Counted from the stretch's first letter, positions 3,212 through 59,476 are shown. The stretch: DNA of 62,999 nt from an uncultured Bacillota bacterium (GCA_946541645.1 CAMNJS010000001.1:1-62999), one strand, 5' to 3'. A program made the numbers and translations. The notes: generated by a model from the letters alone, not told the origin.

Positions 3212-3299
3212 AAAATTTTAAAGCTAAATTATTATTTTAAAAAAATAAAAAGGAAATCATGCTTTCTCCAGTATATATAATATAGAGGAAGATACTTAG

Positions 3300-3748
3300 T
3301 ATGAAATATTACTCTAAGAATAAAAAGCGGCAAGGAAGTAGAAAAATATGATAAAAAAAGATATGAGAACAGCCAAATTAAAAAAGAAAAATAATCCTTC
3401 TAAATTTTGATTATGAGTTTTCAGGAATATTTAATGATAGTAACAACCTAATAATAGTAGAAAACTTTATTGCCATATATTTAAATGTAAACATTGAAAA
3501 AATAAGAGAACACTTAACCATAAAATCAAGATATTAATAAAAAGAATAAAAACAAACAAGAAGATCTATTATTATAATTAGATGGAGAAAAGATAAATAT
3601 AGAACTATCAAATAAAAATTCAGAAGTGATAAAAGAAAGAAATGTAGTATATGTATCAGAAATACACGGGATGTTAAAAGAAAATATTGATATAGAACTA
3701 ATTTCCAAAACTACAGGGCTTTCAAAGAAAAAAAGTGAACTATTGTGA
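3300..3748 (+). pseudogene. Decayed fragment of an Rpn-family (PD-(D/E)XK nuclease / transposase-like) gene
   Basis: The stop-riddled region ends in the frame ...DGEKINIELSNKNSEVIKERNVVYVSEIHGMLKENIDIELISKTTGLSKKKSELL*. This resembles the conserved C-terminal tail of Rpn/YhgA-like proteins (IA..MLK.....e.I...TGLS.eEi..L). No ATG-started ORF exists, and a terminator follows directly. Confidence 0.4.
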
Positions 3749-3767
3749 AAAAACACAATAGTTTTTA
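3739..3767 (+). terminator. Rho-independent terminator
   Basis: ACTATTGTG-aaaaaa-CACAATAGT followed by TTTTT. Confidence 0.7.
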
Positions 3768-3833
3768 TTATAAAAATATATTTTTCTACATTTAATTTAA
3801 ATACAAAAAAATATAATGTATTTGGTGATTATT

Positions 3834-4790
3834 ATGAAAAAAATAAAAATTAAAAAAAGAAGATTCAAATATCGTATACTAGGCTATGCATTTATTGCCT
3901 TTTTAGGTTATCAAATATCATTTAATATAATAATGAATTTTAAATTAGCAAATGACAATGAATCGTTTGTAAAAGCCTTATTAATAGATTCTAATTATCA
4001 TATGTTATATGAAAAAAAATCCAGCAATTTACTTACAAAAGCATTTTCAAAGATAATAAACGTAAATGAACCGGTTACAATACTAGATAATTTATTTCAC
4101 TTAAAAGAAAACAAAGTGAATCCAAGCATGGCATATGTAAGTAACCCAAATAAAGAGATAAATAATGTTGATAAAAATCCTGAGGTATATTTATATAATA
4201 CCCACCAAGGAGAAGCGTACGAAGGAAAAGCCTTAGAAGGCTATAATATAACGCCAGGGGTTATGATGGCATCATATATATTTCAAAAAAAGTTTTCTGA
4301 AATAAATATAAAGGCCTTAGTCATGGAAGACAATATTTCAGATTATCTAAACTTAAATAACATGAAATATAGTAAAAGCTATAATGCAAGTAGAGTTTTT
4401 CTAAAAGAAGCTTTAAATAAAAATCAAAATCTAAAATTAATTATAGATATCCATAGAGATTCAATTGAAAAAAATAATTCAACAGTCATAATTAACAATA
4501 AACCGTGTGCAAAAATATTATTTGTAGTTGGTGAAGAATATGAAACATATGAAGAAAATTTAAGAATGACAAACTATATAAACGAAAAAATAAAAGAAAA
4601 ATATCCACAAATAACAAGAGGTGTAATAACCAAAGGTGGCAAAGGAAGTAACGGCATATATAATCAAGATCTAAATAATAAAATAACACTAATGGAAATA
4701 GGCGGACATCAAAACACTATAGATGAAGTTTTAAATACAATAGACCTTATTACCCCGATAATAGGAGAGTATATAAATGAAGCACGCTAA
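3834..4790 (+). CDS. spoIIP: Stage II sporulation protein P (SpoIIP amidase/peptidase)
   Basis: N-terminal TM segment, YLYNTHQGEAY and IIDIHRDS motifs typical of SpoIIP. Located downstream of gpr. ATG at 3834 follows GGTGA. Confidence 0.85.
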   Translation: MKKIKIKKRRFKYRILGYAFIAFLGYQISFNIIMNFKLANDNESFVKALLIDSNYHMLYEKKSSNLLTKAFSKIINVNEPVTILDNLFHLKENKVNPSMAYVSNPNKEINNVDKNPEVYLYNTHQGEAYEGKALEGYNITPGVMMASYIFQKKFSEINIKALVMEDNISDYLNLNNMKYSKSYNASRVFLKEALNKNQNLKLIIDIHRDSIEKNNSTVIINNKPCAKILFVVGEEYETYEENLRMTNYINEKIKEKYPQITRGVITKGGKGSNGIYNQDLNNKITLMEIGGHQNTIDEVLNTIDLITPIIGEYINEAR

Positions 4791-5143: not shown

Positions 5144-6052
5144 ATGAAGTTAATAATAGGAAGCCATGTTTCTTACACGAAAGATGAAGGATTACTCGGA
5201 AGCGTTAAAGAAGCACTAAGCTACGGTGAAAATACATTCATGTTTTATACAGGTGCCCCACAAAACACTTTTAGATCTCCAATTAATAAAGAAAAAACTG
5301 AAGAAGCAAAAAAAATAATGAAAAAAGAAAATATAGATATTAAAGACGTTATTATACACGCTCCATACATAATTAATTTAGCGACAGCAAATGAAGAAAA
5401 ATTTAATTTTGCAGTGAACTTTTTAAAACAAGAGGTTAAAAGGGCCGAACAGTTAAGCATAAACAAAATAGTTCTTCACCCTGGAAGCCACGTAGGAATA
5501 GGTGAGGAAAAAGGATTAGAAAATATAATAAAAGGATTAAATCTAGTCTTAACTGAAAAAGAAGGACCAATTATTTGTCTTGAAACAATGGCTGGGAAAG
5601 GAACAGAGCTTGGAACCACTTTCAAGCAGCTAAACAGTATTATTAAAAATGTTAAGAATAATAATAGAGTGATGGTCTGTCTCGATACATGTCATTTAAA
5701 TGATGCTGGATATGATGTCAAAAAATTTGATAATCTATTAGAAGAATTTGATAAAATAGTTGGACTAGATAAAATCGCCTGCATTCACATAAACGATAGT
5801 AAAAACGAAATTGCCGCGCATAAAGATAGACACGAAAATATTGGAATAGGAACAATAGGCTTTGATAATCTAATAAAAATTATTTATCATGAAAAATTAA
5901 AAGAAATTCCTAAAATATTAGAAACTCCATATATAAGCATAGATGGTGGCAAAGACAGAACTTATCCACCATATAAATTTGAAATCGAAATGATTAAAGA
6001 CAAAAAATATAATGAACACCTTTTAGAAGAAATAAGAAATTACTACAAATAA
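5144..6052 (+). CDS. nfo: Deoxyribonuclease IV (endonuclease IV)
   Basis: Xylose-isomerase-like TIM barrel AP endonuclease motifs: IHAPYIINL, VLHPGSH, LETMAGKG, CLDTCH, HINDSK. ATG at 5144 follows AGGTGA. Confidence 0.9.
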   Translation: MKLIIGSHVSYTKDEGLLGSVKEALSYGENTFMFYTGAPQNTFRSPINKEKTEEAKKIMKKENIDIKDVIIHAPYIINLATANEEKFNFAVNFLKQEVKRAEQLSINKIVLHPGSHVGIGEEKGLENIIKGLNLVLTEKEGPIICLETMAGKGTELGTTFKQLNSIIKNVKNNNRVMVCLDTCHLNDAGYDVKKFDNLLEEFDKIVGLDKIACIHINDSKNEIAAHKDRHENIGIGTIGFDNLIKIIYHEKLKEIPKILETPYISIDGGKDRTYPPYKFEIEMIKDKKYNEHLLEEIRNYYK

Positions 6053-6303
6053 TCTTTATATCTTTCCTTATATATAAAAAATAAATTAATAATTTTCTCG
6101 CCTTTAGCTTTACCAAATTTATTTTCTATTTTACGAATAATTGGGTGGGAATCTCCATAAAGCAATTCCTCCCAATTATTTTTTAAATAAAAGTGTAAAA
6201 GTTCTCCCTCATCTTTACTTAAAATAATATCATTTTCCAAGCCAAAATTTAAAATATCTTGAACAGATATCTTGTCAATGTAATTTTTAATAAAAAAACG
6301 CAT
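6043..6303 (-). CDS. DUF2624 (YqfT-like) small protein
   Basis: 86 aa, convergent with and overlapping nfo, as for B. subtilis yqfS(nfo)/yqfT. RBS GGAGGGG. Confidence 0.5.
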   Translation of the reverse strand: MRFFIKNYIDKISVQDILNFGLENDIILSKDEGELLHFYLKNNWEELLYGDSHPIIRKIENKFGKAKGEKIINLFFIYKERYKDYL

Positions 6304-6355
6304 AACCCCTCCTTATAAAATTGTATGAATAAAAGAAAGCCGAGGTGATAAAAGC

Positions 6356-8494
6356 ATGATAAAAATTTTAAAAAAAAGAAGCATATATACTCCAAAAAAG
6401 AAAAAGAAAAGAAAAATTCAAAAAAGAAAAGCATCCTTAAAAATAAACACAAAAAGCAAAAAACAAGGATATAACTTTAGCATATATAAACAATCTAAAG
6501 ACATAAAACTAGAAATAGAAAAACGTTACAACATTCTTACTTTTATCATTATACTAGCTTTATTAGTATTAACAATTTTTTTATTCTTTATTCAAATAAT
6601 TAAAAGTGAAAGCTACACTAAACAGTTAAAAACCTTAACCAAAAAAATAGTGTATGGGCAGTCTGCTCCACGAGGTAGAATTTATGATCGAAATGGCAAA
6701 TTAATAGTCGATAACACACCAGTTAAAGTAATATATTATAAAAAGCCATCAGAAATAACCACTAAAGAAGAAATGAAAATAGCCTATAAACTTGCAGACA
6801 TGATCGACGTAGATGTTAAAATAAACGACTACGATTTAAAAGTATTTTGGATAAAAAATAATAAAGAAAAAGCTAATAGTAAAATAACTAAAAAAGAATG
6901 GAAAAAATTAGAAGAAAGAAAACTGACAAACGACGAAATATATAAATTAAAAATCGAAAGAGTAAGCAGTGAAGATTTAAAAATATATAATGAGCATGAT
7001 AAAAAGGCCGCATACATATATACCCTTATGAATACTGGGTACTCATATGCCGAAAAAATAATAAAGAGTAAAGATGTAACCGATGAAGAGTATGCCTTAG
7101 TATCAGAAAATTTAAGCGATTTAAAAGGCATCAATACAAAACTAGATTGGGATAGAACATATCCATATGGAAATACATTTAAAAGCTTACTTGGAAAGGT
7201 ATCTACCAGCAAAAGTGGAATACCCCTTGAATTAAAAGACTATTATTTAGATAAGGGATACAGTCTAGATGACAGAGTTGGAATTAGCTATCTAGAATAT
7301 CAATATGAAGATATTTTAAAAGGTAAAAAAAACAAATATGAAGTTGAAAATAACGGCGCATATAAACTTATTGAAGAAGGAAAACGCGGCACCGATATAA
7401 CAATTTCAATTGATATTGAGCTTCAAAAAGAACTTGAACAAATATTAGAAGAGGAAGTTTTAAATGCTAAAAAAGAAGCTAATACTCAGTACTATAACAG
7501 ATCATTTGTAATCATCACAAACCCTAAAACCGGCGAAATATTAGCCATGGCCGGCAAACAAGTAAAAGAAGAAAACGGAAACCTAGTTGTCGTTGATTAC
7601 GCACCGGGATTGCTTACTTCATCAGTTGTTGCTGGATCAGTAGTAAAGGGAGCTTCGCAAACAGTAGGCTATAACACAGGAGCCTTAAAAATAGGTGAAG
7701 TAAGATACGATAGCTGCGTAAAAATAGCTGCAACGCCAGAAAAATGTTCATGGAAGCCACTAGGAAAACTAAACGATATAACTGCTATCGCATATTCTTC
7801 AAACACATATCAGTACTATACTGCTATTAAAGTCGGAAAAGGAACATATAAATACAATAAACCACTAGTAATTGACAAAGAAGCTTTTAATACATACCGA
7901 AATACATTTCAAGAATTTGGCCTAGGAGTAAAGACCGAAATAGATTTGCCTAATGAAATTACAGGCTATAAAGGAACTAATACAGCACCAGGACATCTAT
8001 TAGATTTCGCAATAGGACAGTATGATAATTATACACCACTACAACTATCTCAGTACATTGGCACAATTGCGAGCGGTGGAAAAAGAATGAAACTCCACTT
8101 ATTTAAAAACATATATGGAGAAAAAGAAGATAAAAATGAAAAAGAACTAAACACAGTAAATACTAGTGCAGAATATATGGCTAGGATAAAAGAAGGGTTT
8201 AAAGCCGTAACTAGCTATGGAACCGGAGTGGGTTATATAGATCAAGTATTTAATGCCGCTGGTAAAACCGGAACAAGTCAAAGCTTTGTCGACACCAATA
8301 ACGATGGAAAAGTTGACACAGAAACCATCAGTACCACCTTTGCAGCTTACGCTCCAGCCGACGATCCAATAGTTACATTCACAATTATTTCGCCAGATAT
8401 ATCACATAATAATGGCACCCTGCACTATCAATCACAGATAAATAAAAGATTAGCTGATAGAGTTTCTAAAAAATACTTTGAAATTTTCAAGTAA
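6356..8494 (+). CDS. Class B penicillin-binding protein (PBP2-type transpeptidase)
   Basis: Dimerisation domain plus transpeptidase motifs SVVK (SxxK), SSN and KTGT. Long polybasic cytoplasmic tail followed by one TM helix. Confidence 0.88.
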   Translation: MIKILKKRSIYTPKKKKKRKIQKRKASLKINTKSKKQGYNFSIYKQSKDIKLEIEKRYNILTFIIILALLVLTIFLFFIQIIKSESYTKQLKTLTKKIVYGQSAPRGRIYDRNGKLIVDNTPVKVIYYKKPSEITTKEEMKIAYKLADMIDVDVKINDYDLKVFWIKNNKEKANSKITKKEWKKLEERKLTNDEIYKLKIERVSSEDLKIYNEHDKKAAYIYTLMNTGYSYAEKIIKSKDVTDEEYALVSENLSDLKGINTKLDWDRTYPYGNTFKSLLGKVSTSKSGIPLELKDYYLDKGYSLDDRVGISYLEYQYEDILKGKKNKYEVENNGAYKLIEEGKRGTDITISIDIELQKELEQILEEEVLNAKKEANTQYYNRSFVIITNPKTGEILAMAGKQVKEENGNLVVVDYAPGLLTSSVVAGSVVKGASQTVGYNTGALKIGEVRYDSCVKIAATPEKCSWKPLGKLNDITAIAYSSNTYQYYTAIKVGKGTYKYNKPLVIDKEAFNTYRNTFQEFGLGVKTEIDLPNEITGYKGTNTAPGHLLDFAIGQYDNYTPLQLSQYIGTIASGGKRMKLHLFKNIYGEKEDKNEKELNTVNTSAEYMARIKEGFKAVTSYGTGVGYIDQVFNAAGKTGTSQSFVDTNNDGKVDTETISTTFAAYAPADDPIVTFTIISPDISHNNGTLHYQSQINKRLADRVSKKYFEIFK

Positions 8495-18537: not shown

Positions 18538-18969
18538 ATGAAACAAAATCAAAAAGGTTTTACACTTATCGAACTTTTAGCCGTAATTGTTATCTTAGCT
18601 ATTATCGCCTTAATCGCTACTCCAATTGTCATGAATGTTATTAATAAATCTAGACAAAAGGCAGCTGAAGATAGTGCATATGGTGTCATTGAAGCTATAA
18701 AAGCAAAGCATGCCGAAAGAATGCTAGATACATCTAGTGATATTAGTGAAAGTATCGAAGTTACATGGAGTGATGGCGTAGGTACAATTACAAATTCAAC
18801 TGAAACAGTTACTGTTAGTGGAACTAAACCAACTGCCGGAAAAGTTTCAATATCTTCAAATGGTACAGTTAATGTAGAAGGATTAAAGATTAACGGCTAT
18901 ACATGTAATGGTAGTGATACTGTAACATGTTCAAATGCTGCTGATGCCGCTAACAATGGTGGTAATTAA
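18538..18969 (+). CDS. Prepilin-type N-terminal cleavage/methylation domain protein (type IV pilin-like), P1
   Basis: MKQNQKG|FTLIELLAVIVILAIIALIATP class III signal peptide with Glu at +5. C-terminal Cys pair YTCNGSDTVTC. Strong RBS GAGGAGGTGA. Confidence 0.85.
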   Translation: MKQNQKGFTLIELLAVIVILAIIALIATPIVMNVINKSRQKAAEDSAYGVIEAIKAKHAERMLDTSSDISESIEVTWSDGVGTITNSTETVTVSGTKPTAGKVSISSNGTVNVEGLKINGYTCNGSDTVTCSNAADAANNGGN

Positions 18970-22686: not shown

Positions 22687-24363
22687 ATGAAAAATAAAGG
22701 ATTCACATTAGCAGAAATATTAGGAGTAATAGTAATAATAGGATTGTTACTACTATTAGTCGCACCAAACATAATAAATAGAATAAGTTCAAATAAAGAA
22801 AAGGTAAGTAAAACAACTGAAAAAATAATCTATAATGCCGCAAGCACATATGTCGACGAAAATAGTGAAAAATATAAATTAGGAAAAAGATATTGTGTAG
22901 CTATTAAAGACTTAATAAAAGAAGGTAAACTAGCAAGCCCATTAAAAGATCCAGTAACTGGAGATGATTATGAGCCAAAAACATTACTTGTAACAATTTA
23001 TAATAATGGAACAAAAGAGTATGAATTATATGATAATATTGCGGAGTGTGAAACATATTCAAAACTTCCATTTATTCAAATATATGCAGATAACAGTAAA
23101 TGGGAAAAATCAAAAACAGTAACAATAACATATCCAAAGGTAGGAAATGAAGAGTATCCACTAGTAGGAAAAAACTATGCATATCAAGTGCCAGGAAAAA
23201 CGTTAGTAGAAAAAGAAACTGCCTTTGAAAATAATACACAAACAATTACGGGTGTAATGTCAAATGGAGAAGTAACAGCCAGTATGCTATATGGAAATAA
23301 AATAATAACAGCAACAAAAAAAATAAATAAAATTGATAATACTGCGCCAACATGTGATGGTCAAACTGGTGGAAAAACAACATGCACAAAAGATCAAAAT
23401 GTAACGGTAGGTGCAAAGTGTAAAGATGAGCAAAGCGGCTGCACTCAAGATGAATTTACTGCTGTAATTAGTGGTGAAGGAGATACCCAAAAAAAAGAGA
23501 TAACAATATCAGATAATGCCGGAAACACTAATACATGTAATTATACATATAGCAAAAATATAGACACAACAGCCCCAGACATACCACAAATAACAAATCC
23601 TACAAACGGAAACTGGACAAATAGTAATATTAAGCTAACTTTAAAATCAAAAGATACTGGATGCGCTGGAATAGCAAATTATCAGTATACTTATTCAAAT
23701 AGTGCAACAGAAGTAGGAAACAACCACAATACATATTGGGTGAAATATAGTGGAGATTCAGCAAAAGAAACATTTGTAAGTTCAGACTTTAGTGCAGAAC
23801 GTAATCAATATGTCTATGTAAGAGCTTGTGATAGTTTAGGAAATTGCTCAGGCAAATCACAAACAATGATAAAAATTGATAAAACGAGACCAACATGTAG
23901 TACCTCGAAATCAAGTATTGGTTCAGCAAGCGGTGTAAATGTAGCAATAAGTTGCAAAGATGATAGTCATGCGACGACTAATAGCGGTGTTAAAACATGC
24001 GCAGGCACAAATGGCGCATCATCTAGCAAAACAGGTGTCAAAACTACAACCTCATATACGGTAACAGACAAAGCTGGGAATAGTAATACATGTAGTGCGT
24101 CAGTGACCTACGATAGCTGCTATCATGTAGGTTATACATGCGCTTATGGCTGCGATACATGTGGCGGAGATGCATATTCCTGCCCAGAAACAAAATGTGT
24201 AACCACATCTAGCATGAATACATACTGTCCTAACGGTGGAGTATTTGTTGCCGGTCGAGGATGTTGCTATGAAATACCAAAAACATGCTATCATGACACT
24301 TATAGATGTAACTGCAGTAGTTGTCACCATTATGTTAATACATGCAGTGGAGGTTACAAATAG
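22687..24363 (+). CDS. Large modular prepilin-type protein (P3): pilin module + Ig-like repeats + Cys-rich C-terminal module
   Basis: MKNKG|FTLAEILGVIVIIGLLLLLVAP, then a GspG/ComGC-like LIKEGKLASPLKDPVTGDDY. Repeated ID(N/T/K)T(A/R)P...D.AGN..TC modules follow. 14 Cys in the last 81 residues. ATG at 22687 follows AGGTGA. Confidence 0.8.
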   Translation: MKNKGFTLAEILGVIVIIGLLLLLVAPNIINRISSNKEKVSKTTEKIIYNAASTYVDENSEKYKLGKRYCVAIKDLIKEGKLASPLKDPVTGDDYEPKTLLVTIYNNGTKEYELYDNIAECETYSKLPFIQIYADNSKWEKSKTVTITYPKVGNEEYPLVGKNYAYQVPGKTLVEKETAFENNTQTITGVMSNGEVTASMLYGNKIITATKKINKIDNTAPTCDGQTGGKTTCTKDQNVTVGAKCKDEQSGCTQDEFTAVISGEGDTQKKEITISDNAGNTNTCNYTYSKNIDTTAPDIPQITNPTNGNWTNSNIKLTLKSKDTGCAGIANYQYTYSNSATEVGNNHNTYWVKYSGDSAKETFVSSDFSAERNQYVYVRACDSLGNCSGKSQTMIKIDKTRPTCSTSKSSIGSASGVNVAISCKDDSHATTNSGVKTCAGTNGASSSKTGVKTTTSYTVTDKAGNSNTCSASVTYDSCYHVGYTCAYGCDTCGGDAYSCPETKCVTTSSMNTYCPNGGVFVAGRGCCYEIPKTCYHDTYRCNCSSCHHYVNTCSGGYK

Positions 24364-47086: not shown

Positions 47087-47650
47087 TTATAATATTTCAT
47101 CAATTAATCCATATTCTAAAGCTTCTGGTGCTGTCAAAAAATAATCCCTCTCAGTATCACTTTCTATTTTTTTAATATCTTGACCAGTTTTTTCACTCAA
47201 AATTAAATTTAATTTTTCTTTTAACCTAATTATCCTTTCCGCAGCTATTTTAATCTCCGTAGCTTGTCCTTGTGCCCCACCAAGAGGCTGATGAATCATT
47301 ACCTCACTGTTAGGAAGCGCATACCTCATACCTTTTTCACCAGATGCAAGTAAAAAAGCTGCCATACTAGCTGCCATACCAACACATACCGTTGAAACCT
47401 TACTCTTAGTAAAATTCATCGTATCATATATAGCAGTACCGCTAGTAATACTCCCACCAGGCGAATTAATATATATACTAATAGGATCATGATTCAAAGA
47501 ATCCAAGTATAAAAGTTCGGCAACAACTATATTAGACAAATTATCATCTATTTCTCCACTAAGAATAATAATTCTATCCTTTAAAAGTCTAGAATATATG
47601 TCATAAACACGCTCACCATCACTGCTTTTCTCAAGAACACTTGGTACCAT
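47087..47650 (-). CDS. clpP: ATP-dependent Clp protease proteolytic subunit
   Basis: [23 protein letters not shown] (Ser) and MIHQPLGG (His) motifs. ATG at 47650 follows GAGGGGTGA. Confidence 0.95.
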
Positions 47651-47763
47651 ATTTATCACCCCTCTAATATTTATAATAGGTGTAAACTAAAAATAATATG
47701 CATTAAAATAAATGACAAAATTATATATTTTTGGTAAACTAATAATAGATAGTAGGGGATAAA

Positions 47764-49425
47764 ATGAAAAAACTAAAATTAAAATATAAAGATAGATACA
47801 TTGAAAACGTTGAATATGAAACGCCACTATATGAGATATTAAAAGAAATAAAAGAAGATTATAAATATTCAGTAGTAGGTGCAAGCCTAGATGGGTATCT
47901 AGTAGATTTAAATACCAAAATAACTGAAAATGAAAAAGTAGAGTTTTATGATACATCTTCAGTTATTGGAAATAGAATATATGCCCGAAGTTTAGAATTT
48001 TTAATAACAGTAGCCTGCAAAAAAGTTTTAGATAATGATTCTGAAGTTTTAATAAATTACTCCTTAGAAAATGGTGTATGTATTGAAATAACTGGCAAAA
48101 AAATCAGCACCATAACGATAAAAAAAATAGAAGAAAAAATGAACGAATTAGTAAATAGTGAACTACCAATTAACTATATAATTGTAGATAGATTAGATGC
48201 CATTAAATATTTTAAAAGAAATAACCAAATGGATAAAGTAAATTCCTTAAAATATATGACCAGCAAAACAATTACCTTATATACATTAGATGACGTTTAT
48301 GATTATTTTTATTGGCCACTTGTCTATAATACTAAGTTATTAAACAAATTTGCCATTAGTAACCTAAAAGATAATAAATTTATTTTAAGTTATCCTACTA
48401 GTGCAAACCCAAACAAAGTAAAAGAATATATAAAACACGACCTTACTGCAAAAACATATGAAGATTTTCAAAATTGGGGTAGACTTATAAATATTAAAAC
48501 AGCCTCAGACCTCAATAGACTCTGCGCGCTAGGACAAGATGTTGAAACCGTAAAACTATTTGAAACTCATTATGAAGATCAATTATCAAAAATCGCCGAG
48601 GAAATATCCAAAAGAAAAGATAAAATAAAAATAATTTTACTAGCAGGACCTTCATCAAGCGGTAAAACGACAACTGCCAAAAAACTAGAGTTATATTTAA
48701 AAGTAAAAGGAATGCACACGAAAAAGATTTCTCTTGATAACTATTTTGTAGATAGAATATATGCCCCAAAAGATGATGAAGGAAATTTAGATTATTCAGA
48801 CATTAAATCTCTAGATGTAACCTTATTTCAAAAGCAACTATCTAGAATGTTAAAAGGAAATAAAGTATTAATGCCAACTTATGATTTTGTAAACGGCAAA
48901 AAATATTATAAAGATAACTACATAAAATTAGCAGAAGATGACATTATAATTGTTGAAGGCATTCATACCCTAAACGAAAAGCTCACAAGCATCATACCTA
49001 GAGAAAATAAATATAAAATATTTATAAGCCCACTAGTCAGCTTAAAATTAGATAATCATAATAGAATACATTCAACAGATGTCAGAAAAATAAGAAGAAT
49101 TGTAAGAGATAATCTGTTTAGAGGAACCAGTGCTGAAGAAACACTTGCCATGTGGCCAAACGTCGATAAAGAAGCCATAAAAAATATATATCCATACCAA
49201 GACGATGCCGATTCTATATTAAACTCATCGTTAGGTTACGAACTAAACGTGCTTAGAATATATGCCGAACCATTATTATACGGAATTGAAAGTACAAGTA
49301 AAGAATATGTAGAGGCTGTAAGACTTTTAAATTTATTACACAATTTTTTAACGATTACCAGTGAAGTAGTACCAAAAGATTCAATTTTAAGAGAATTTAT
49401 TGGTGGAAGTAGTTTTAAAGATTAG
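47764..49425 (+). CDS. Nucleoside/uridine kinase family protein with N-terminal TGS-like domain
   Basis: P-loop LLAGPSSSGKTTTAKKL in a PRK/uridine-kinase-like C-terminal half, 553 aa. Confidence 0.6.
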   Translation: MKKLKLKYKDRYIENVEYETPLYEILKEIKEDYKYSVVGASLDGYLVDLNTKITENEKVEFYDTSSVIGNRIYARSLEFLITVACKKVLDNDSEVLINYSLENGVCIEITGKKISTITIKKIEEKMNELVNSELPINYIIVDRLDAIKYFKRNNQMDKVNSLKYMTSKTITLYTLDDVYDYFYWPLVYNTKLLNKFAISNLKDNKFILSYPTSANPNKVKEYIKHDLTAKTYEDFQNWGRLINIKTASDLNRLCALGQDVETVKLFETHYEDQLSKIAEEISKRKDKIKIILLAGPSSSGKTTTAKKLELYLKVKGMHTKKISLDNYFVDRIYAPKDDEGNLDYSDIKSLDVTLFQKQLSRMLKGNKVLMPTYDFVNGKKYYKDNYIKLAEDDIIIVEGIHTLNEKLTSIIPRENKYKIFISPLVSLKLDNHNRIHSTDVRKIRRIVRDNLFRGTSAEETLAMWPNVDKEAIKNIYPYQDDADSILNSSLGYELNVLRIYAEPLLYGIESTSKEYVEAVRLLNLLHNFLTITSEVVPKDSILREFIGGSSFKD

Positions 49426-49438
49426 GAAGGATGATAAA

Positions 49439-50458
49439 ATGATTAAAGTAGCAATTAATGGTTTTGGTAGAATAGGAAGGCTAGTATTTAGAATAATGGA
49501 AGAAGATTCTGATTTTGACGTTATAGCCATAAACGACTTAACGGATCCTGAACAGCTCGCATACCTATTAAAATATGATACATCCCATAGAAGATACTTA
49601 GAAAATGAAATAACTTACGATGATGAAAATTTAATTGTCAAAGGTCGAAAAATTAAAGTTTACAAAGAAATGGATCCAAATAACCTTCCATGGAAAGAAC
49701 TAGATATAGATGCTGTCTATGAATGTACAGGTAAATTTACAGAAAAAGAAAAAGCTCAAGCCCATATAAATGCCGGAGCCAAAAAAGTTATTATTTCAGC
49801 CCCAGCCAAAGGAGACTTAAAAACCATAGTTTATGGTGTTAACGAGGACATACTAGACGCAAATGATACCATTATAAGTGCCGCTTCATGTACAACAAAC
49901 TGCCTAGCTCCAGTAGTTAATATACTAAATAAAGAATTTGGTATAAATAAAGGCTACATGACCACTGTTCACGCCTATACAAACGATCAGTCAATACTAG
50001 ATTTATCACATAAAAAAGGCGCAAAATCAAGAAGAGGAAGAGCTGCTGCAGCTAATATAATTCCATCATCAACAGGGGCCGCAAGTGCTCTAGGAAAAGT
50101 AATACCAGATTTAGGCGGAAAACTAGACGGTAGCGCTTTAAGAGTGCCTGTAACCACAGGCTCAGTTGTAGACTTAACACTAGAACTAGCGAGAAAAGTT
50201 ACAAAAGAAGAAATAAACGAAGCGTTCAAAAAAAATGTAAGTGACACCTTAGAATATACTATAGATCCAATAGTTTCAAGCGACGTTATAGGAAATACCC
50301 ATGGAGCTATAATCGATAGCTTACTTACTGACATATTAGAAACAGAAAACGGAGATTTAGTCAAAGTAGTAGCTTGGTATGACAACGAAATGGGCTATAG
50401 CGCTCAAATGGTAAGAACTGTCAAACATTTATGTCAAAAAACAAGAATTGATAATTAA
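49439..50458 (+). CDS. gap: Glyceraldehyde-3-phosphate dehydrogenase
   Basis: MIKVAINGFGRIGR, SCTTNCLAP and WYDNEMGYS motifs. ATG at 49439 follows AGGAAGG. Confidence 0.96.
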   Translation: MIKVAINGFGRIGRLVFRIMEEDSDFDVIAINDLTDPEQLAYLLKYDTSHRRYLENEITYDDENLIVKGRKIKVYKEMDPNNLPWKELDIDAVYECTGKFTEKEKAQAHINAGAKKVIISAPAKGDLKTIVYGVNEDILDANDTIISAASCTTNCLAPVVNILNKEFGINKGYMTTVHAYTNDQSILDLSHKKGAKSRRGRAAAANIIPSSTGAASALGKVIPDLGGKLDGSALRVPVTTGSVVDLTLELARKVTKEEINEAFKKNVSDTLEYTIDPIVSSDVIGNTHGAIIDSLLTDILETENGDLVKVVAWYDNEMGYSAQMVRTVKHLCQKTRIDN

Positions 50459-50486: not shown

Positions 50487-50514
50487 AACTTTAGAATTCT
50501 TCTAAAGTTTTTTA
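50487..50514 (+). terminator. Rho-independent terminator after gap
   Basis: AACTTTAGA-attct-TCTAAAGTT followed by TTTTT. Confidence 0.75.
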
Positions 50515-50595
50515 ATATATTACCAGCCCTTTTAAATTTAAAATACCTTGTTATTATAAAAAAAATGTTATAAAATAATATTAGGTGATTATAAT

Positions 50596-50937
50596 ATGAA
50601 AAATGGATTCACACTCGTTGAATTACTTGCTGTCCTAGTTGTCCTAGGCGTAATTACACTAGTATCTGTCCCAAGTATTATTACTACTAATAAAAAATCA
50701 ATTGAAAATGACTATAATGAATTTAAAAGAACAGTTGAAAATGCAGCTGAGATCTATATTGAAACTCACCCAGATAAAAAGCCATCAAACCAAACTCAAG
50801 TTTCTGTATCAATGTTAAAACATAGTGGCTACTTAGAAACTGGGCTAGTAAATCCTAAAAATGGCGAAATTAGTGAAAACGCATACGTCCTTGTAAGCAA
50901 AACCGGAAACAGTTATACATATGAATATAAGGAGTGA
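50596..50937 (+). CDS. Prepilin-type pseudopilin-like protein (P4), first gene of the pgk operon
   Basis: MKNG|FTLVELLAVLVVLGVITLVSVP and the GspG/ComGC-like MLKHSGYLETGLVNPKNGE. Upstream TGtTATAAA (50566-50574). The stop is 4 nt before the pgk ATG. Confidence 0.85.
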   Translation: MKNGFTLVELLAVLVVLGVITLVSVPSIITTNKKSIENDYNEFKRTVENAAEIYIETHPDKKPSNQTQVSVSMLKHSGYLETGLVNPKNGEISENAYVLVSKTGNSYTYEYKE

Positions 50938-50941
50938 TAAT

Positions 50942-52126
50942 ATGAAAAAAACAATCAAAGATTATGACTTAAAAGGTAAAAAAGTAATTATAAGATGTGA
51001 CTTCAACGTTCCAATAGAAGGCGGAGTAATAAAAGATGATAACCGAATTAGACAAAGCTTAAAGACTATTAGATATGCAAGAAAAATGGGCGCAAAAGTC
51101 ATTTTACTTTCACATTTGGGAAGAGTAAAAACCGAAGAAGATAAAGAAAAATATACCTTAAGACCAGTAGCTGAAGCATTATCAAAACTCTTAAGAAAGA
51201 AAGTTATATTTATAAATAAAACAAGAGGAAAAGAAGTAGAAGAAACCATAAAAAACATGAAGGAAAAAGATGTTATCCTACTAGAAAACACTAGATTTGA
51301 AGACTTAGAAAAGCAAAAAGAAAGTAAGAATGATAAAAGACTAGGAAAATACTGGGCTAGTTTAGGTGATATTTATATTAATGATGCCTTTGGAACTATT
51401 CATAGATCACACGCCTCAAATTTAGGAATAGCAAAACATCTAAAAAGTGGCGTTGGATTTCTTGTGGAAAAAGAAATAAAAGAACTTGAAAAACTTACTA
51501 AAAACCCTAAAAAACCATATACAATTATTCTAGGTGGTTCAAAAGTAAGTGACAAAATAAATTTGCTTAAAAATTTAAGTAAAAAAGCTGATTATATTTT
51601 AATAGGAGGCGGCATGGCCTTTACATTTTTAAATGCTGCTGGCTTCAATATAGGATCATCACTATGTGAAAAAGAAGAAATTCCATTTTGCAAGCAACTA
51701 TTAGAAGACTATCCAGACAAAATCATTTTACCAATTGATATAATTACAGCTAAAGAAATAAAACAAAATGTTAAAACTAAAAATCGCTTTGTAAACGAAA
51801 TAGAAGAAGATGAGATAGGGTTAGACATTGGTAAGAAAACTCTAGAAGTATTCAAACAATATATTGACGACAGTAAAACCATCTTTTGGAATGGGCCTAT
51901 GGGATACTTTGAAATAAAAGATTTCTCTAAAGGGACAAAAGGGTTATGTGAAGTTATAGCAAATTCAAAGGCTTATAAAATAATAGGTGGCGGTGACACC
52001 GCAAGAGCTGTAACTGAAATGGGATATGAAAAGAAAGTAAACCATATATCAACTGGCGGAGGAGCAAGCCTTACATTTCTGGAAGGAGTAAAGCTCAAAG
52101 CTTTAGATAGTATTAATGAAAAATAA
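50942..52126 (+). CDS. pgk: Phosphoglycerate kinase
   Basis: VIIRCDFNVP, SHLGR and GGGDTA motifs. ATG at 50942 follows AAGGAG. Confidence 0.95.
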   Translation: MKKTIKDYDLKGKKVIIRCDFNVPIEGGVIKDDNRIRQSLKTIRYARKMGAKVILLSHLGRVKTEEDKEKYTLRPVAEALSKLLRKKVIFINKTRGKEVEETIKNMKEKDVILLENTRFEDLEKQKESKNDKRLGKYWASLGDIYINDAFGTIHRSHASNLGIAKHLKSGVGFLVEKEIKELEKLTKNPKKPYTIILGGSKVSDKINLLKNLSKKADYILIGGGMAFTFLNAAGFNIGSSLCEKEEIPFCKQLLEDYPDKIILPIDIITAKEIKQNVKTKNRFVNEIEEDEIGLDIGKKTLEVFKQYIDDSKTIFWNGPMGYFEIKDFSKGTKGLCEVIANSKAYKIIGGGDTARAVTEMGYEKKVNHISTGGGASLTFLEGVKLKALDSINEK

Positions 52127-53117
52127 CAAAAGAAATTACATAATTATACTTCTTTTAACTGCCATAATCTTATATTTAGTTTTTAAAGATAATTTCACAG
52201 AAAAAATAAAATACTTATTTTCATTTGATATAAAATGGTTACTATTTGCTTTTATTCTAATGATTTCGTATTGGGTTTTAAAAGGCATAGTTTTATACTA
52301 TTGTGTAAAAAAAATTGATAAAACATACACTAGAAAAAAAGGAATTAATTTAATGCTAACAACCCAATTTTTTCACGCTATAACCCCATTTTCAACCGGT
52401 GGACAGCCCTGGCAAATATACAAGTTAAAAAAAGAAGGACTTACACTAGGAGAAAGTACAACTATAATAGTAGAAGACTTTATCGTATACCAAATTGCCC
52501 TAGTGTCTTTAGGACTAATTGCCGTTGTTGTAAATAACACATTTAATATACTATCAAAAGACAGTTTTTTAAAATATCTAGTTACGATCGGCTTTATAAT
52601 AAATGCTTTAATAATAGTACTTTTATTTTTAGTCGCCTTTAATAAAAAATGGAACAAAAAGATAATAAATGGAACAATAAATTTTGGAGCCAAAATTAAG
52701 GTCATAAAAGATAAAGAAAGCCTATTAAAAAAGGCAGAAAATTTTATAAATAATTTTCACAAAAGTGCAGATATACTATTCAAGCACAAATTAAATTTTA
52801 TAAAAATTATACTGCTAAATTTTTTTGCTCTTTCACTACTATACTTAATTCCTTATGCCCTTATGCGAGGATTAAACATAAATGCAAATCCATTTATTGT
52901 CGTAATAACATCAGCATATGTTATGTTGATAGGTGGAGTAGTTCCAGTTCCAGGCGCAGCGGGAGGCCTTGAATATAGTTTTATGTCATTTTTTAAAAAT
53001 TTCATCAAAGGCCCAAAACTATCCATTATAATGATTGTTTGGAGAATAATAACTTACTATTTTGGACTTATAATTGGATTATTCATTTTAAGCTTTTGCG
53101 AGGAGGATAATAAATGA
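52116..53117 (+). CDS. UPF0104 / MprF-like flippase-domain membrane protein
   Basis: About 8 TM helices with TPFSTGGQPWQIY and VPVPGAAGGLE motifs. Overlaps the pgk stop by 11 nt. Confidence 0.7.
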   Translation: MKNNKRNYIIILLLTAIILYLVFKDNFTEKIKYLFSFDIKWLLFAFILMISYWVLKGIVLYYCVKKIDKTYTRKKGINLMLTTQFFHAITPFSTGGQPWQIYKLKKEGLTLGESTTIIVEDFIVYQIALVSLGLIAVVVNNTFNILSKDSFLKYLVTIGFIINALIIVLLFLVAFNKKWNKKIINGTINFGAKIKVIKDKESLLKKAENFINNFHKSADILFKHKLNFIKIILLNFFALSLLYLIPYALMRGLNINANPFIVVITSAYVMLIGGVVPVPGAAGGLEYSFMSFFKNFIKGPKLSIIMIVWRIITYYFGLIIGLFILSFCEEDNK

Positions 53118-54346
53118 GAATAGGAATTTTTACTGAGACATATACTCCTTATATCAGTGGACTAGTAACCAGTGAACTCATGCTAAAAAAAGCTCTAGAA
53201 AAAAAAGGACACGAAGTTTATGTCGTTACAGCCAACTTAGATAGTTTTGAATATGAATATGATGAAAAAGAAAAGGTACTTAGAATTCCAGGAATTCCAA
53301 CTGGAATATATAACGCGAGACTAACCAGTATTTATCCAATTCAATCATTAAATAAAATAAAAAGCTGGCATCTTGACATTATTCACTCACAAACAGAGTT
53401 TGGAATCGGTTCATTTGCCAGATTATTTGCTAAACAATATAACATTCCCATAGTGCATACATATCACACTATGTATGAAGATTATGTACACTATATAACC
53501 AAAGGCCACTTCAATCGATCAAGTAAAAAAATAGTTGAATATTTAACAAAATTTTATTGCGATAAAACCATAAGTGAACTAATTGTACCCACAAAAAAAG
53601 CATATGACCTGTTCAAAGAAAAATACAATGTTAAAAGAAACATTCACATAATTCCAACCGGAATTGAAGTTGATAGATTTTACAGAGAAAATCAAGACAT
53701 CAAGAAAATCCAAGAATTAAAAAAGAAATACAACATAAAAAAAACAGACTTTACCTTGATTTTTGTAGGCAGAATAGCTGAAGAAAAAAATATACCATTT
53801 ATAATTGACGTAGTTTCAAATATAGCTGAAAAAAATAAAAATTTAAAATTATTAATAATTGGAGATGGTCCTGATAAAGCAAAATACGAAACATACGTTA
53901 AAGAAAAAAAAGCCGAAAAAAACATACTATTTACTGGAAAAGTATCGTGGGAAGATATTCCGGCCTACTACGCAATAGGAAATGTCTTTATTTCGGCCTC
54001 AACCACAGAAACCCAAGGTCTCACAATTATTGAAGCCATGGCCTCATCACTTCCAGCCTTATGCATTGATGATGAAAGTTTTAATGGAACTGTTATTGAT
54101 GATCTAAATGGCTACCTATTTAAAGATAAAGCAGAATGCGAAAAGACAATATTAAGAATTATAAATAAGCAAAAAGATTTAGAAAGGTTAAGTAAAGGCG
54201 CTAGAAACAGTGCTGACAAACATTCATCAAAATATTTTGCTGAAAGAGTATTAGACGTGTATAGAATAGCTATAAAAAATAAAAAACCAAGTTATAAAGA
54301 AAAAATAAGTAAATTCTTTAAAAAGGTGATACCATGGAAAAAATGA
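53114..54346 (+). CDS. GT4 glycosyltransferase, diacylglycerol glucosyltransferase (alMGS)-like
   Basis: MRIGIFTETYTPYISGLVTS N-terminus and the E..G....EAMA motif (TETQGLTIIEAMAS). ATGA overlap with the upstream gene. Confidence 0.75.
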   Translation: MRIGIFTETYTPYISGLVTSELMLKKALEKKGHEVYVVTANLDSFEYEYDEKEKVLRIPGIPTGIYNARLTSIYPIQSLNKIKSWHLDIIHSQTEFGIGSFARLFAKQYNIPIVHTYHTMYEDYVHYITKGHFNRSSKKIVEYLTKFYCDKTISELIVPTKKAYDLFKEKYNVKRNIHIIPTGIEVDRFYRENQDIKKIQELKKKYNIKKTDFTLIFVGRIAEEKNIPFIIDVVSNIAEKNKNLKLLIIGDGPDKAKYETYVKEKKAEKNILFTGKVSWEDIPAYYAIGNVFISASTTETQGLTIIEAMASSLPALCIDDESFNGTVIDDLNGYLFKDKAECEKTILRIINKQKDLERLSKGARNSADKHSSKYFAERVLDVYRIAIKNKKPSYKEKISKFFKKVIPWKK

Positions 54347-55014
54347 TATTTGTAAATCAAAAAATGTATTTAGATAGTATAAGTGACATAAAAAAGTTTC
54401 AAAACGAAACAATTGATTATAAAGATAAATTTATTATCTTTCCGTCTGATATATACCTAAGTGATTATATAAGCAAAGGATTTACTGTTGGTAGTCAAAA
54501 CATATCACCAGAAGATAGTGGGGCCCATACTGGGCAAATATCTGGAAAGGCCTTAAAAGATTTAGATGTTAGTTATGTAATGATTGGCCACTATGAAGTT
54601 TGTAAACATTATAAGGAAAAATGTGTCAGGATTCAAGAAAGAATAAATCAAGCGATAAAAAACAATCTAAAAGTAGTTTTATGTGTTGGTGAGAATATTG
54701 AAGAAAAAACAAACGGCCAAACAAAAGAAACAATAAAAAGAAAACTAGAAAATTTAGATTTAAATGAAAATATAATTATTTCCTATGAACCAGTATGGTC
54801 CATAGGTACAGATCTTACCCCAACAAATGAAGAAATAGAAGATATTGTAAATTACATAAAAACATTTAAAAACGTAAAAGTCCTATATGGTGGAAGCGTT
54901 GGCCCAAACAATATTGATATATTAAATAAAATCCCAAATTTAAATGGATTTTTACTAGGTAGTCACGCCTTACAAAGTAGTAATTTAAAAAAAATAATAG
55001 AAGTTGTACAATAA
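54334..55014 (+). CDS. tpiA: Triose-phosphate isomerase, short and divergent
   Basis: Asn/Lys (VNQKMY), His (IGHYE) and Glu (YEPVWSIGT) catalytic positions are present, plus YGGSV. Several phosphate-loop positions deviate from consensus. Overlaps the GT4 stop. Confidence 0.7.
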   Translation: MEKMIFVNQKMYLDSISDIKKFQNETIDYKDKFIIFPSDIYLSDYISKGFTVGSQNISPEDSGAHTGQISGKALKDLDVSYVMIGHYEVCKHYKEKCVRIQERINQAIKNNLKVVLCVGENIEEKTNGQTKETIKRKLENLDLNENIIISYEPVWSIGTDLTPTNEEIEDIVNYIKTFKNVKVLYGGSVGPNNIDILNKIPNLNGFLLGSHALQSSNLKKIIEVVQ

Positions 55015-55115
55015 CTTCTTTTTAATTAATAAAAAATCGACAAAATTAGCTATTTTTTACTCTAGAAAACAGTGTAAAGATTTTGTATAATTTGAATAGT
55101 AAAGGAGAATAAAAC

Positions 55116-55877
55116 ATGAAAACAAATATTTTAATGATTGATGACAATAAAAATCTAATTGACATGGTGAAGGAGTATTTTAAGAATAATGAAAATATAA
55201 ACATAGTCTTCGAAGCCTATGACGGAGAAGAAGGTATAGAACAATTAGAAAAAAATAGTGAAAACATAGATTTAATACTCTTAGACTTAATAATGCCAAA
55301 TAAAGATGGATTTTACGTTTTAAACGAAATGAAAAAAAGAGGCATGAATAAAAAAGTAATTGTAGCGACAAGTTATAATGCCGCCGAAGTAATTAGAGAA
55401 GTATCAGAATATGGTGTTAGTTATTATGTTTTAAAACCTTTTGATCTAAATATATTAGAAAAGAGAATACACGACATTACAAATAAAAAAGAAGAAACAG
55501 AAGACATCGACTTTTATGCAAGCAACCTTCAAGTTTCTATTACTAAAATGCTACATGAACTTGGAATTCCATCACACATAAAAGGATATGGATACATCAG
55601 AGAAGCTGTTTGTATTATATTTGAAAATCCTGAAATAATAGGTGGAATAACAAAAGAGTTATATCCTGCACTAGCTTCAAAATTCAACACAACTGTGTCG
55701 CGAGTAGAAAGAGCAATTCGTCATGCTATTGAAGTGAGCTGGAATAGGGGTAACTTAGATTTCATGGAAGAATTATTCGGCTATAGTGTAGATATAGATA
55801 AAGCAAAACCGACAAATTCAGAATTTATGGTTACCATTGCCGACAAATTAAGATTAGATTTTCATAAAGTAAGCTAA
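55116..55877 (+). CDS. spo0A: Sporulation master regulator Spo0A
   Basis: Receiver domain (DDN..., LDLIMP) plus the Spo0A-specific C-terminus: [19 protein letters not shown] and [15 protein letters not shown]. Confidence 0.95.
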
Positions 55878-55921: not shown

Positions 55922-56263
55922 ATGATGAAAAATAAAGGATTTACTCTAATGGAACTTTTAGGAAGCATTACTATACTAGCCTTAATTGCTCTAATAGTTT
56001 TTCCAGCCATATTAAATATGCTAGGTGATTCACAAAGTAAAATAGATAAAGCAAAGCAAGACTATGTAATAAGCGCAGCTAGAGAATATGTAAAAGATAA
56101 TGATTTAGAAGTTAATACAACCATTAGCATTGACGTAGATATATTAATTAAAAAAAATTATTTAAAAGAAAACATGATTGATGAAGAAATGACAAACGAT
56201 AGCGTTACATGTACTAAAATTGATGGTACTATAACTTATAAGTATAATGAAGAAAGTGATTAA
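55922..56263 (+). CDS. Prepilin-type pseudopilin-like protein (P5)
   Basis: MMKNKG|FTLMELLGSITILALIALIVFP and AAREYV...LIKKNYL. Upstream TGtTAAAAT (55900-55908). Confidence 0.85.
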   Translation: MMKNKGFTLMELLGSITILALIALIVFPAILNMLGDSQSKIDKAKQDYVISAAREYVKDNDLEVNTTISIDVDILIKKNYLKENMIDEEMTNDSVTCTKIDGTITYKYNEESD

Positions 56264-58630: not shown

Positions 58631-59476
58631 ATGAAAAAATTTTTTCAAAGCATCGGTATAATCACCCTAATGATAGGTAGTTTTATGTTAACAAGTAAAG
58701 TTGAAACTGCATCAAAATTAAGTGATTCATTATTAAATGAAATAAAAAGTAAAAAAGACGGATACAAAGAAAACGCCATCGAGCCATTAATCAAAAATAA
58801 CACCATAATTCCAGGCATAAACGGAAAAGAAGTAGATGTTCAAAAAAGCTACGAAGAAATGAGTAAAATAGGCTATTTTGATGATAAATTTTTGATATAT
58901 AAAACTCTTAAAGTTGAAAATACACTAGATAAAAATAAAGATAAATACATAATAAGTCTAAACAATAGTAAGATGGAAATAAGCTTAATATTTAAACTAA
59001 GTAAGGACGACGATATAAACAACATAATAAATAAATTAGAAGAAAAAGACATAAAAGCCACTTTTTTTATAAATAGTGCTTATCTAGAAAAACACCACAA
59101 TCAAATAATTAAACTAATTCAAAAAGGCCATACAGTAGGGAATTTATCAAATAATGAAGATTACCTTGACAGCGATTTTGTTTGGATGAAAACTATAATA
59201 ACTAATATTGGTCCACAAAAATATAACTACTGCTACACCGAAAAAGAAAATAAAGAAATTATAAATAACTGTAAACTTCAAGATTCATTTACTATAATTC
59301 CGACTGTAATAATAAAAGAAAATGAATTAATAAATATAAAAAAACACCTAAAACCTGGTTACATTATTTCCATAGAAGTAAATAAAAACACAAACAAAGA
59401 AATTGAATTAATTTTAAACTATATAATAGCAAAAGGATACAGCATCGAGCCACTAGAAGAAGGGTTAAAAGAATAA
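58631..59476 (+). CDS. Polysaccharide deacetylase (NodB homology)-like protein with degenerate metal site
   Basis: Signal/anchor helix, then KLSKDDD...KATFFINSAYL...GHTVGNLSNNE. NodB-like order of motifs, but without the H(S/T)xxH histidines. Confidence 0.55.
   Translation: MKKFFQSIGIITLMIGSFMLTSKVETASKLSDSLLNEIKSKKDGYKENAIEPLIKNNTIIPGINGKEVDVQKSYEEMSKIGYFDDKFLIYKTLKVENTLDKNKDKYIISLNNSKMEISLIFKLSKDDDINNIINKLEEKDIKATFFINSAYLEKHHNQIIKLIQKGHTVGNLSNNEDYLDSDFVWMKTIITNIGPQKYNYCYTEKENKEIINNCKLQDSFTIIPTVIIKENELINIKKHLKPGYIISIEVNKNTNKEIELILNYIIAKGYSIEPLEEGLKE

Follow-up and report, generated by a model that had tools for sequence, protein, structure and literature searches.

The window analysed here, a 62,999-nucleotide (nt) stretch from an uncultured Bacillota bacterium (GCA_946541645.1, CAMNJS010000001.1:1-62999), contains at positions 50,487-55,014 a block of five genes in which two glycolipid genes are enclosed by genes of central glycolysis. 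The block probably represents one sigma-A-driven transcription unit, which arose by an ancient insertion of a two-gene glycolipid module between the phosphoglycerate kinase gene pgk and the triose-phosphate isomerase (TPI) gene tpiA and was inherited vertically thereafter. The two interposed genes encode a flippase-like membrane protein (gene flip) and a GT4 glycosyltransferase. On sequence comparison, the pair is homologous to LafC and LafA of Listeria and bears the same NCBIfam signature. A prepilin-type gene is located ahead of pgk. The elements of the unit are listed below, with protein lengths in amino acids (aa).

50487-50514, plus strand: predicted intrinsic terminator of gap, AACTTTAGAA/TTCTAAAGTT followed by a T-run; 5' boundary of the unit
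50548-50576, plus strand: predicted sigma-A-type promoter from a promoter scan, with -35 TTGTTA (50548-50553) and extended -10 TGtTATAAAAT (50566-50576)
50596-50937, plus strand: prepilin-type gene, 113 aa (Pfam N_methyl PF07963, 25 bits, cutoff 21.2)
50942-52126, plus strand: pgk, phosphoglycerate kinase (Pfam PGK PF00162, 495.8 bits)
52116-53117, plus strand: flip, UPF0104/LPG_synthase_TM "flippase-like" membrane protein, LafC-like, 333 aa (PF03706, TIGR00374)
53114-54346, plus strand: GT4 glycosyltransferase, LafA/alMGS-like, 410 aa (best NCBIfam model NF049988)
54334-55014, plus strand: tpiA, short divergent triose-phosphate isomerase, 226 aa (Pfam TIM PF00121, 188.7 bits)
54999-55025, plus strand: predicted terminator hairpin over the tpiA stop codon, AGAAGTTGT...ACAACTTCT followed by a T-run; 3' boundary of the unit

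An earlier note on this stretch had recognised the same five genes, and open reading frame (ORF) listing together with profile searches finds all of them in place. The junctions between them agree with that note as well, which had given a 4-nt gap and overlaps of 11, 4 and 13 nt. The stop codon of the pilin gene (TGA, 50935-50937) is separated from the pgk ATG at 50942 by 4 nt, as read directly in the sequence, and the Shine-Dalgarno sequence of pgk (AGGAG, 50930-50934) is embedded in the last codons of the pilin gene. The genes pgk and flip overlap by 11 nt, flip and the GT4 gene share ATGA (53114-53117) with GAGGAGG just before it, and the GT4 gene and tpiA overlap by 13 nt. An alternative in-frame ATG of tpiA at 54343 would also give an ATGA overlap with the GT4 gene. 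The three stop/start overlaps would allow coupled translation. At pilin/pgk and flip/GT4, two of the four junctions, the Shine-Dalgarno sequence is embedded in the preceding gene, which may add to this coupling.

Boundaries of the transcription unit

The hairpin of the gap terminator folds with -10.8 kcal/mol (z = -4.8, 0 of 200 shuffles as good), and that over the tpiA stop with -7.1 kcal/mol (z = -2.75). A generic terminator scan picked up neither hairpin because their stems are AT-rich; the G+C content of the window is 29%. At the 5' end, a motif ahead of the pilin gene is shared by most of some 40 related species. It consists of cTTGT(T/A)A, a spacer of variable sequence, TGnTATAAAAT, roughly 10 nt, TAGGTGAT and ATG, whereas the pilins encoded behind it are only about 30-50% identical. 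This conserved promoter is usually positioned just 3' of a hairpin with a T-run. Relatives that lack the pilin gene carry a TGnTATAAT promoter directly before pgk, after the gap terminator. Thus, gap forms a separate unit throughout the clade.

At the 3' end, the hairpin with its T-run over the tpiA stop is kept in 13 close relatives with changed stem sequences; behind it, the promoter region of spo0A is conserved as well (TTCGACAAAA-TAGCTATTTTTTACTCTAG...TTTTGTATAAT). Within the unit, no hairpin with a T-run separates one gene from the next. The terminator after gap and the extended -10 promoter, both proposed in the earlier note, are thus confirmed by folding, promoter scan and conservation in relatives, and its remark that no terminator follows until after tpiA also stands. 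Judged from these alignments, the comparative data make both boundaries of the unit credible.

The LafC/LafA-type gene pair

The best-scoring family of the GT4 protein is NF049988, the alpha-monoglucosyl-diacylglycerol synthase model represented by alMGS of Acholeplasma laidlawii. The match is colinear and full-length, joining residues 1-391 with profile positions 1-392 of 398, and the EX7E motif is present (ETQGLTIIE, residues 299-307). The score of 298 bits is lower than the cutoff of 400 bits, so the protein is termed alMGS-like and not an equivalog. The LafA orthologue of Listeria reaches 286.7 bits and also falls below this cutoff. In Pfam, the protein matches Glyco_transf_4 with 98 bits and Glycos_transf_1 with 127.6 bits, and its nearest solved structures are distant GT4 enzymes only, such as BshA (57 bits).

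The flippase-like protein matches PF03706 with 149.7 bits (cutoff 33.4) over profile positions 3-302 of 302. On TIGR00374 it scores 95.5 bits (cutoff 43.2), close to the 100.1 bits of the LafC orthologue. A hydropathy scan gives nine partly overlapping hydrophobic segments, about seven to eight of them distinct. A sequence search returned no solved structure for this protein.

The laf loci of six Listeria species were fetched with a degenerate pattern derived from primer ANG554 (Webb et al. 2009, PMC2764115). In tblastn, the GT4 protein is 37.5% identical to the LafA orthologues of Listeria farberi, L. marthii and L. immobilis over residues 1-389 (E 7e-83). The flippase-like protein shares 30-31% identity with the LafC orthologues, with E values from 1e-47 (L. 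grayi, full length) to 1e-38. Its motif PGAAGGLE at residue 279 resembles PGGAGGAEY, which one of the primers of Webb et al. 2009 (PMC2764115) encodes, so that the PGxxGGxE motif is common to the two proteins. LafA makes glucosyl-diacylglycerol (Glc-DAG), and LafC is an accessory protein with eight transmembrane (TM) segments that acts downstream of it (PMC2764115). By this homology, the pair most likely makes a glucosyl-diacylglycerol membrane lipid or the anchor lipid of lipoteichoic acid, and the LafC-like protein may act as a flippase. The profile match and the Laf homology bear out the assignment in the earlier note, a diacylglycerol (DAG) glucosyltransferase type with a flippase-like partner.

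The closest characterised module, not named in the earlier note, is lafA-lafB-lafC of Listeria monocytogenes (lmo2555-2553; Webb et al. 2009, PMC2764115). Both loci combine a LafA-type GT4 with a LafC-type polytopic partner, encoded by overlapping genes within one operon. Unlike the Listeria locus, the window unit has no lafB-type second glycosyltransferase and the order is reversed, with the lafC-like gene ahead of the lafA-like gene. Moreover, the Listeria genes form an operon of their own, whereas the window pair is embedded between pgk and tpiA, and its lipid product is a predicted one.

Modules of a GT4 and a UPF0104 "flippase" are also known from gpgSDF of P. aeruginosa and hexSDF of C. 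difficile (PMC12713373), in which a cytoplasmic GT4 is likewise encoded beside a polytopic predicted flippase of UPF0104/COG0392. In contrast to them, the window unit contains no deacetylase gene. The only related gene, a degenerate NodB-like one (58631-59476), is located 3.6 kb downstream of the unit with four genes between. In addition, the GT4 scores 78.7 bits on the GlcNAc-PG synthase model (cutoff 480) and the flippase-like protein 67 bits on the GlcN-PG flippase model (cutoff 320). Since both scores are far below the cutoffs, a neutral glycosyl-DAG, rather than an aminoglycolipid, is the probable product.

Among 150 representative homologues, no natural fusion of the flippase-like protein with the GT4 was found. 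Long GT4 homologues are fusions with RecX domains, a second GT4, GNAT, sulfatase, aminotransferase or aldo-keto reductase domains. In two representatives (P0128 and P0147), a C-terminal three-helix RecX domain is fused to the GT4, and about 30 others share their length of 655-665 aa. These GT4-RecX-type homologues show 37-46% identity, and the joining of a glycolipid synthase to RecX is an unexpected architecture. The sulfatase domain of other fusions is LtaS-like.

Conservation of the gene order

Scans with the GT4 as query, taking one genome per species, yielded 178 loci in all. The first two scans accounted for 157 of these, from which 127 non-redundant species-level genomes were taken for the synteny counts. 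The hosts are metagenome-assembled genomes (MAGs) of uncultured Bacilli, "Tenericutes" or "Erysipelotrichaceae" from the guts of humans, ruminants, rabbits, mice and chickens. In these relatives, pgk lies at most 1.7 kb upstream of the GT4 gene (110/111), the flippase-like gene adjoins it (101/111), tpiA follows directly 3' of it (111/122), and spo0A is the next gene after tpiA (104/114). The median spacings are +2 nt from pgk to flip, -4 nt from flip to the GT4 gene and -11 nt from the GT4 gene to tpiA. At the edges of the unit, the medians are 512 nt from gap to pgk and 105 nt from tpiA to spo0A.

The earlier note had regarded this mosaic as unusual, and had itself stated that a described norm of this kind within the clade would speak against it. 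Comparison of the gap/pgk/tpiA loci finds in substance such a norm, as the counts of 110 of 111 and 111 of 122 species-level genomes illustrate, even though a literature search brought up no paper describing the arrangement. The gene order is therefore old and inherited, and not peculiar to the window genome. It constitutes an odd placement of a known glycolipid module, ancient and passed on vertically, and not a new system. Walking outward with the representative P0126 mostly retrieved further genomes of this clade, or else GT4s that are only very distantly related, and thus sets no firm outer bound on the phylogenetic spread of the gene order.

Some slots of the block vary. A dUTPase gene, a second GT4, NUDIX proteins and zinc-ribbon membrane proteins occur as insertions of single lineages. 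In 23 relatives, an ORF of about 160 aa with a GNAT fold is placed between pgk and flip or replaces flip (for example L031:4500-5006); it is absent from the window. Most members of this ORF family have no Pfam match. The AlphaFold model has a pLDDT of 90, and its top 50 Foldseek matches in the PDB are all GNAT acetyltransferases (TM about 0.6). The protein may decorate the glycolipid; a natural GNAT-GT4 fusion, P0218, occurs among the GT4 homologues. In the "Erysipelotrichia" MAG L163 (753-6904), the order is gap-pgk-pilin-GT4(second)-flip-GT4-tpiA-spo0A, with the pilin gene after pgk. The second GT4 of this locus is 28% identical and possibly LafB-like.

The pilin gene ahead of pgk

The pilin carries the leader MKNG/FTLVE, a class III signal peptide joined to a hydrophobic helix (MKNG/FTLVELLAVLVVLGVITLV). 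It scores 28.2 bits on TIGR02532 (cutoff 16.3) and 40.7 bits on the NCBIfam ComGC model, below the cutoff of 75 bits. By these scores, it is a generic small pilin with no demonstrable assignment to competence. In 47 of 105 relatives, including all 13 members of the sub-clade of the window, pgk is directly preceded by a pilin gene, with lengths of 114-564 aa. This trait is strongly clustered on the GT4+pgk tree, with 11 changes against 35 in shuffles.

At least four prepilin genes are scattered singly in the window, at 18538-18969 (after valS), 22687-24363 (after a hemW-like gene), 50596-50937 (before pgk) and 55922-56263 (after spo0A). A GGTGAT ribosome-site context is common to three of them, and at least the two beside the operon (pilinA and pilinB) share a TGTTA-type -10. 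These sequence features suggest that the pilin genes may be cassettes, each with a promoter of its own.

Proposed model

The unit would consist of a promoter, the pilin gene, pgk, the lafC-like gene, the lafA-like gene, tpiA and a terminator. The two-gene glycolipid module would have entered between pgk and tpiA in the ancestor of a large clade of gut Bacilli, which are uncultured, low in GC and spore-forming, and the descendants of this ancestor would have inherited the order vertically. The slot before pgk would have been more variable, with a pilin gene placed there in many lineages including that of the window. The GT4, a retaining enzyme of the LafA/alMGS type, would transfer glucose from UDP-glucose to diacylglycerol at the inner leaflet and thus form glucosyl-DAG. 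The LafC-like UPF0104 protein would act downstream of the GT4 and translocate or further process the glycolipid, which may serve as bulk membrane lipid or as lipoteichoic-acid anchor.

RNA contigs support co-transcription of the 3' half of the unit in the clade. In L031, a human-gut MAG with the order pgk-X-flip-GT4-tpiA-spo0A, one 2283-nt contig from a bovine metatranscriptome runs from within flip through the GT4 gene into tpiA (5536-7818). A contig from a second run covers the flip/GT4 junction, and another extends from gap into pgk. The closest relative, L001, has RNA contigs inside the pilin gene and inside pgk, none of which spans a junction. The species of the window itself is present in one sample, whose metatranscriptomes contain a single contig of it, 197 nt long and without mismatches, at 51753-51949 inside pgk. 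By extension from the clade, the unit is presumably co-transcribed in the organism of the window as well.

Several points weigh against the model. The metatranscriptomes of that sample hold no junction-spanning RNA for the organism of the window, and none covers the pilin/pgk and pgk/flip junctions in L031 or L001. Metatranscriptome contigs may also include DNA carry-over, and their depth is unreliable as a measure of expression. Promoter-like hexamers are found within the unit, for example at 52440-52468. On the side of function, the donor and acceptor of the GT4 are not certain, because its score is below the equivalog cutoff (298 vs 400 bits). Flippase activity of UPF0104 partners is predicted only, and the molecular role of LafC is undefined (PMC2764115, PMC12713373).

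Coupling to glycolysis and other explanations

The first alternative holds that the placement is an adaptive metabolic coupling, in which glycolipid synthesis tracks triose-phosphate flux and selection keeps the genes co-expressed, perhaps with a physical association with the divergent TPI. This is unlikely, though several features speak for it. The exact order persists over deep divergence, down to about 50% identity of the GT4 (L162 and L163) and about 28% of the TPI. The overlap of the GT4 gene and tpiA is almost universal, with the distance at most 20 nt in 98% of relatives. In addition, TPI evolves faster than the other proteins of the block, with a median clade identity of 37% compared with 70% for gap, 58% for pgk, 60% for the GT4 and 67% for spo0A. 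Even so, at least 98% of the 115 clade sequences retain its catalytic residues N8, K10, H86 and E152, and the best PDB match of the window protein is 7rgc (E 4.6e-37). That TPI is far more divergent and yet keeps these residues leaves an adaptive link to the triose-phosphate node a small probability. The proposed route would lead from dihydroxyacetone phosphate (DHAP) to glycerol-3-phosphate and on to the DAG backbone, with UDP-glucose drawn from glucose-6-phosphate.

A more specific form, in which the short, fast-evolving TPI is co-translated with the GT4, cooperates at the membrane with both the GT4 and the LafC-like protein and partitions DHAP, is improbable. If true, pgk-lafC-lafA-tpiA would be a "membrane-building" operon that is coupled to flux and found in this uncultured clade only, in which DHAP is split between glycolysis and the glycerolipid backbone.

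Other observations argue against coupling. Overlapping genes are hard to separate, so the order may persist without selection for it. Four relatives have no tpiA in the slot after the GT4 gene (L039, L042, L055 and L067), and in some others the block is interrupted by unrelated genes, for example by a dUTPase gene (L054) or by two ORFs (L025). A scan for the CcpA cre consensus gave no match in the window, and a control element of the cre or CggR type was not found either. Moreover, 56 of the 67 window ORFs are on one strand, and 23 of 48 pairs of same-strand neighbours are at most 20 nt apart, 12 of them overlapping. Equally tight pairs of unrelated genes are formed by an HD-domain gene and valS, the hemW-like gene and its pilin gene, pyk and GH31, and a uridine-kinase-like gene and gap. 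Mosaic packing is thus a habit of the window genome. Of the "hard-wired" coupling claimed in the earlier note, what holds is that the five genes are closely packed and have a promoter and a terminator to themselves, but tight junctions are the rule in this window and the coupling itself is only inferred. Given the tight packing, the scattered pilin genes and the lack of a cre site, ancient insertion on a constitutive promoter is the most economical reading. Most likely, the placement reflects genome compaction and the usefulness of a strong constitutive promoter, with no need for a dedicated regulatory circuit.

The genes could also be adjacent without forming one operon. Internal promoters would then drive flip-GT4 and/or tpiA, and the transcript of the pilin cassette would mostly end before pgk. 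The AT-rich unit contains many promoter-like hexamer pairs, the shared GGTGAT and TGTTA-type elements of the pilin genes look cassette-like, and the depths of the L031 RNA contigs differ among gap, pgk and flip-GT4-tpiA. However, the 79 hexamer pairs are not above the 64 ± 8 expected by shuffling, contig depth is a poor measure of expression, and a single L031 contig covers flip, the GT4 gene and tpiA. The 4-nt pilin/pgk gap, the pgk Shine-Dalgarno sequence inside the pilin gene and the lack of any hairpin with a T-run between genes of the unit also disfavour this explanation, which is slightly less probable again than adaptive coupling.

Type IV pilins are often glycosylated, and the pilin gene in the same unit, together with the pilin and second GT4 between pgk and flip in L163, might suggest that flip and GT4 build and flip a lipid-linked sugar for the pilin and make no membrane glycolipid; this was rejected as very improbable, mainly because flip-GT4 occurs in 50 of 58 evaluable relatives without a pilin gene beside pgk, and also because the best family and nearest characterised homologue of the GT4 are DAG glucosyltransferases and the unit encodes no oligosaccharyltransferase.

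Neighbouring genes and comparison with the glycolytic operon

The unit is flanked by the following genes.

49439-50458: gap, type I glyceraldehyde-3-phosphate dehydrogenase (GAPDH; TIGR01534, 431 bits)
55116-55877: spo0A (TIGR02875, 272 bits)
55922-56263: second pilin gene (PF07963, 28.9 bits)

In Bacillus subtilis, the central glycolytic operon is cggR-gapA-pgk-tpiA-pgm-eno. The window resembles it in that gap, pgk and tpiA follow in the same order and orientation. In contrast to the B. subtilis operon, gap has its own terminator, and the pilin gene and two glycolipid genes are interleaved. The gene directly 5' of gap encodes a uridine-kinase-family protein and not a CggR-type regulator, and spo0A takes the place of pgm/eno after tpiA. 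The genes 3' of tpiA are spo0A, the second pilin gene, dusB and nrnA, according to ORF listing and profile searches. The same searches found neither gpmI nor eno 3' of tpiA in the window, as the earlier note had reported together with the presence of spo0A.

The order of clpP (minus strand), a 553-aa uridine-kinase-family fusion protein and gap (47087-50458) is kept in many relatives, with 13 nt between the end of the uridine-kinase-like gene and the start codon of gap (ATG). The region upstream of spo0A (window 55030-55095; spacers of L001-L013, L057 and L077) is highly conserved across 13 species. Some 45 nt upstream of TGTATAAT, it includes TTCGACA, which matches the complement of the 0A box perfectly; the window has ATCGACA at this point.

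The genes for the germination protease Gpr and for SpoIIP (2213-4790), spo0A, EzrA, a protein of the FtsW/RodA family and a penicillin-binding protein (PBP) indicate that the organism of the window is walled and probably spore-forming. It is not a wall-less mollicute, and the "Tenericutes" and "Mollicutes" labels given to relatives at NCBI do not fit. Several TPA MAG records with this Bacilli-type locus, among them L001, L003, L009, L023 and L035, are titled "uncultured Muribaculaceae" or "Bacteroidaceae", which are evidently wrong labels.

Significance

The unit represents no new kind of molecular system; it is a known LafA/LafC-type module in an unusual place. Its gene order provides a robust synteny marker for the clade. 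The arrangement is also a natural example of non-glycolytic genes fixed in a core glycolytic operon, useful for the study of operon evolution under genome compaction. As far as homology can tell, the bacteria of this clade very probably make glycosyl-DAG lipids of the LafA type from genes expressed from the pgk promoter. The pair thus gives a first point of functional access to the envelope of these bacteria, a large group of uncultured Bacilli living in the guts of humans, ruminants, rabbits, mice and chickens.

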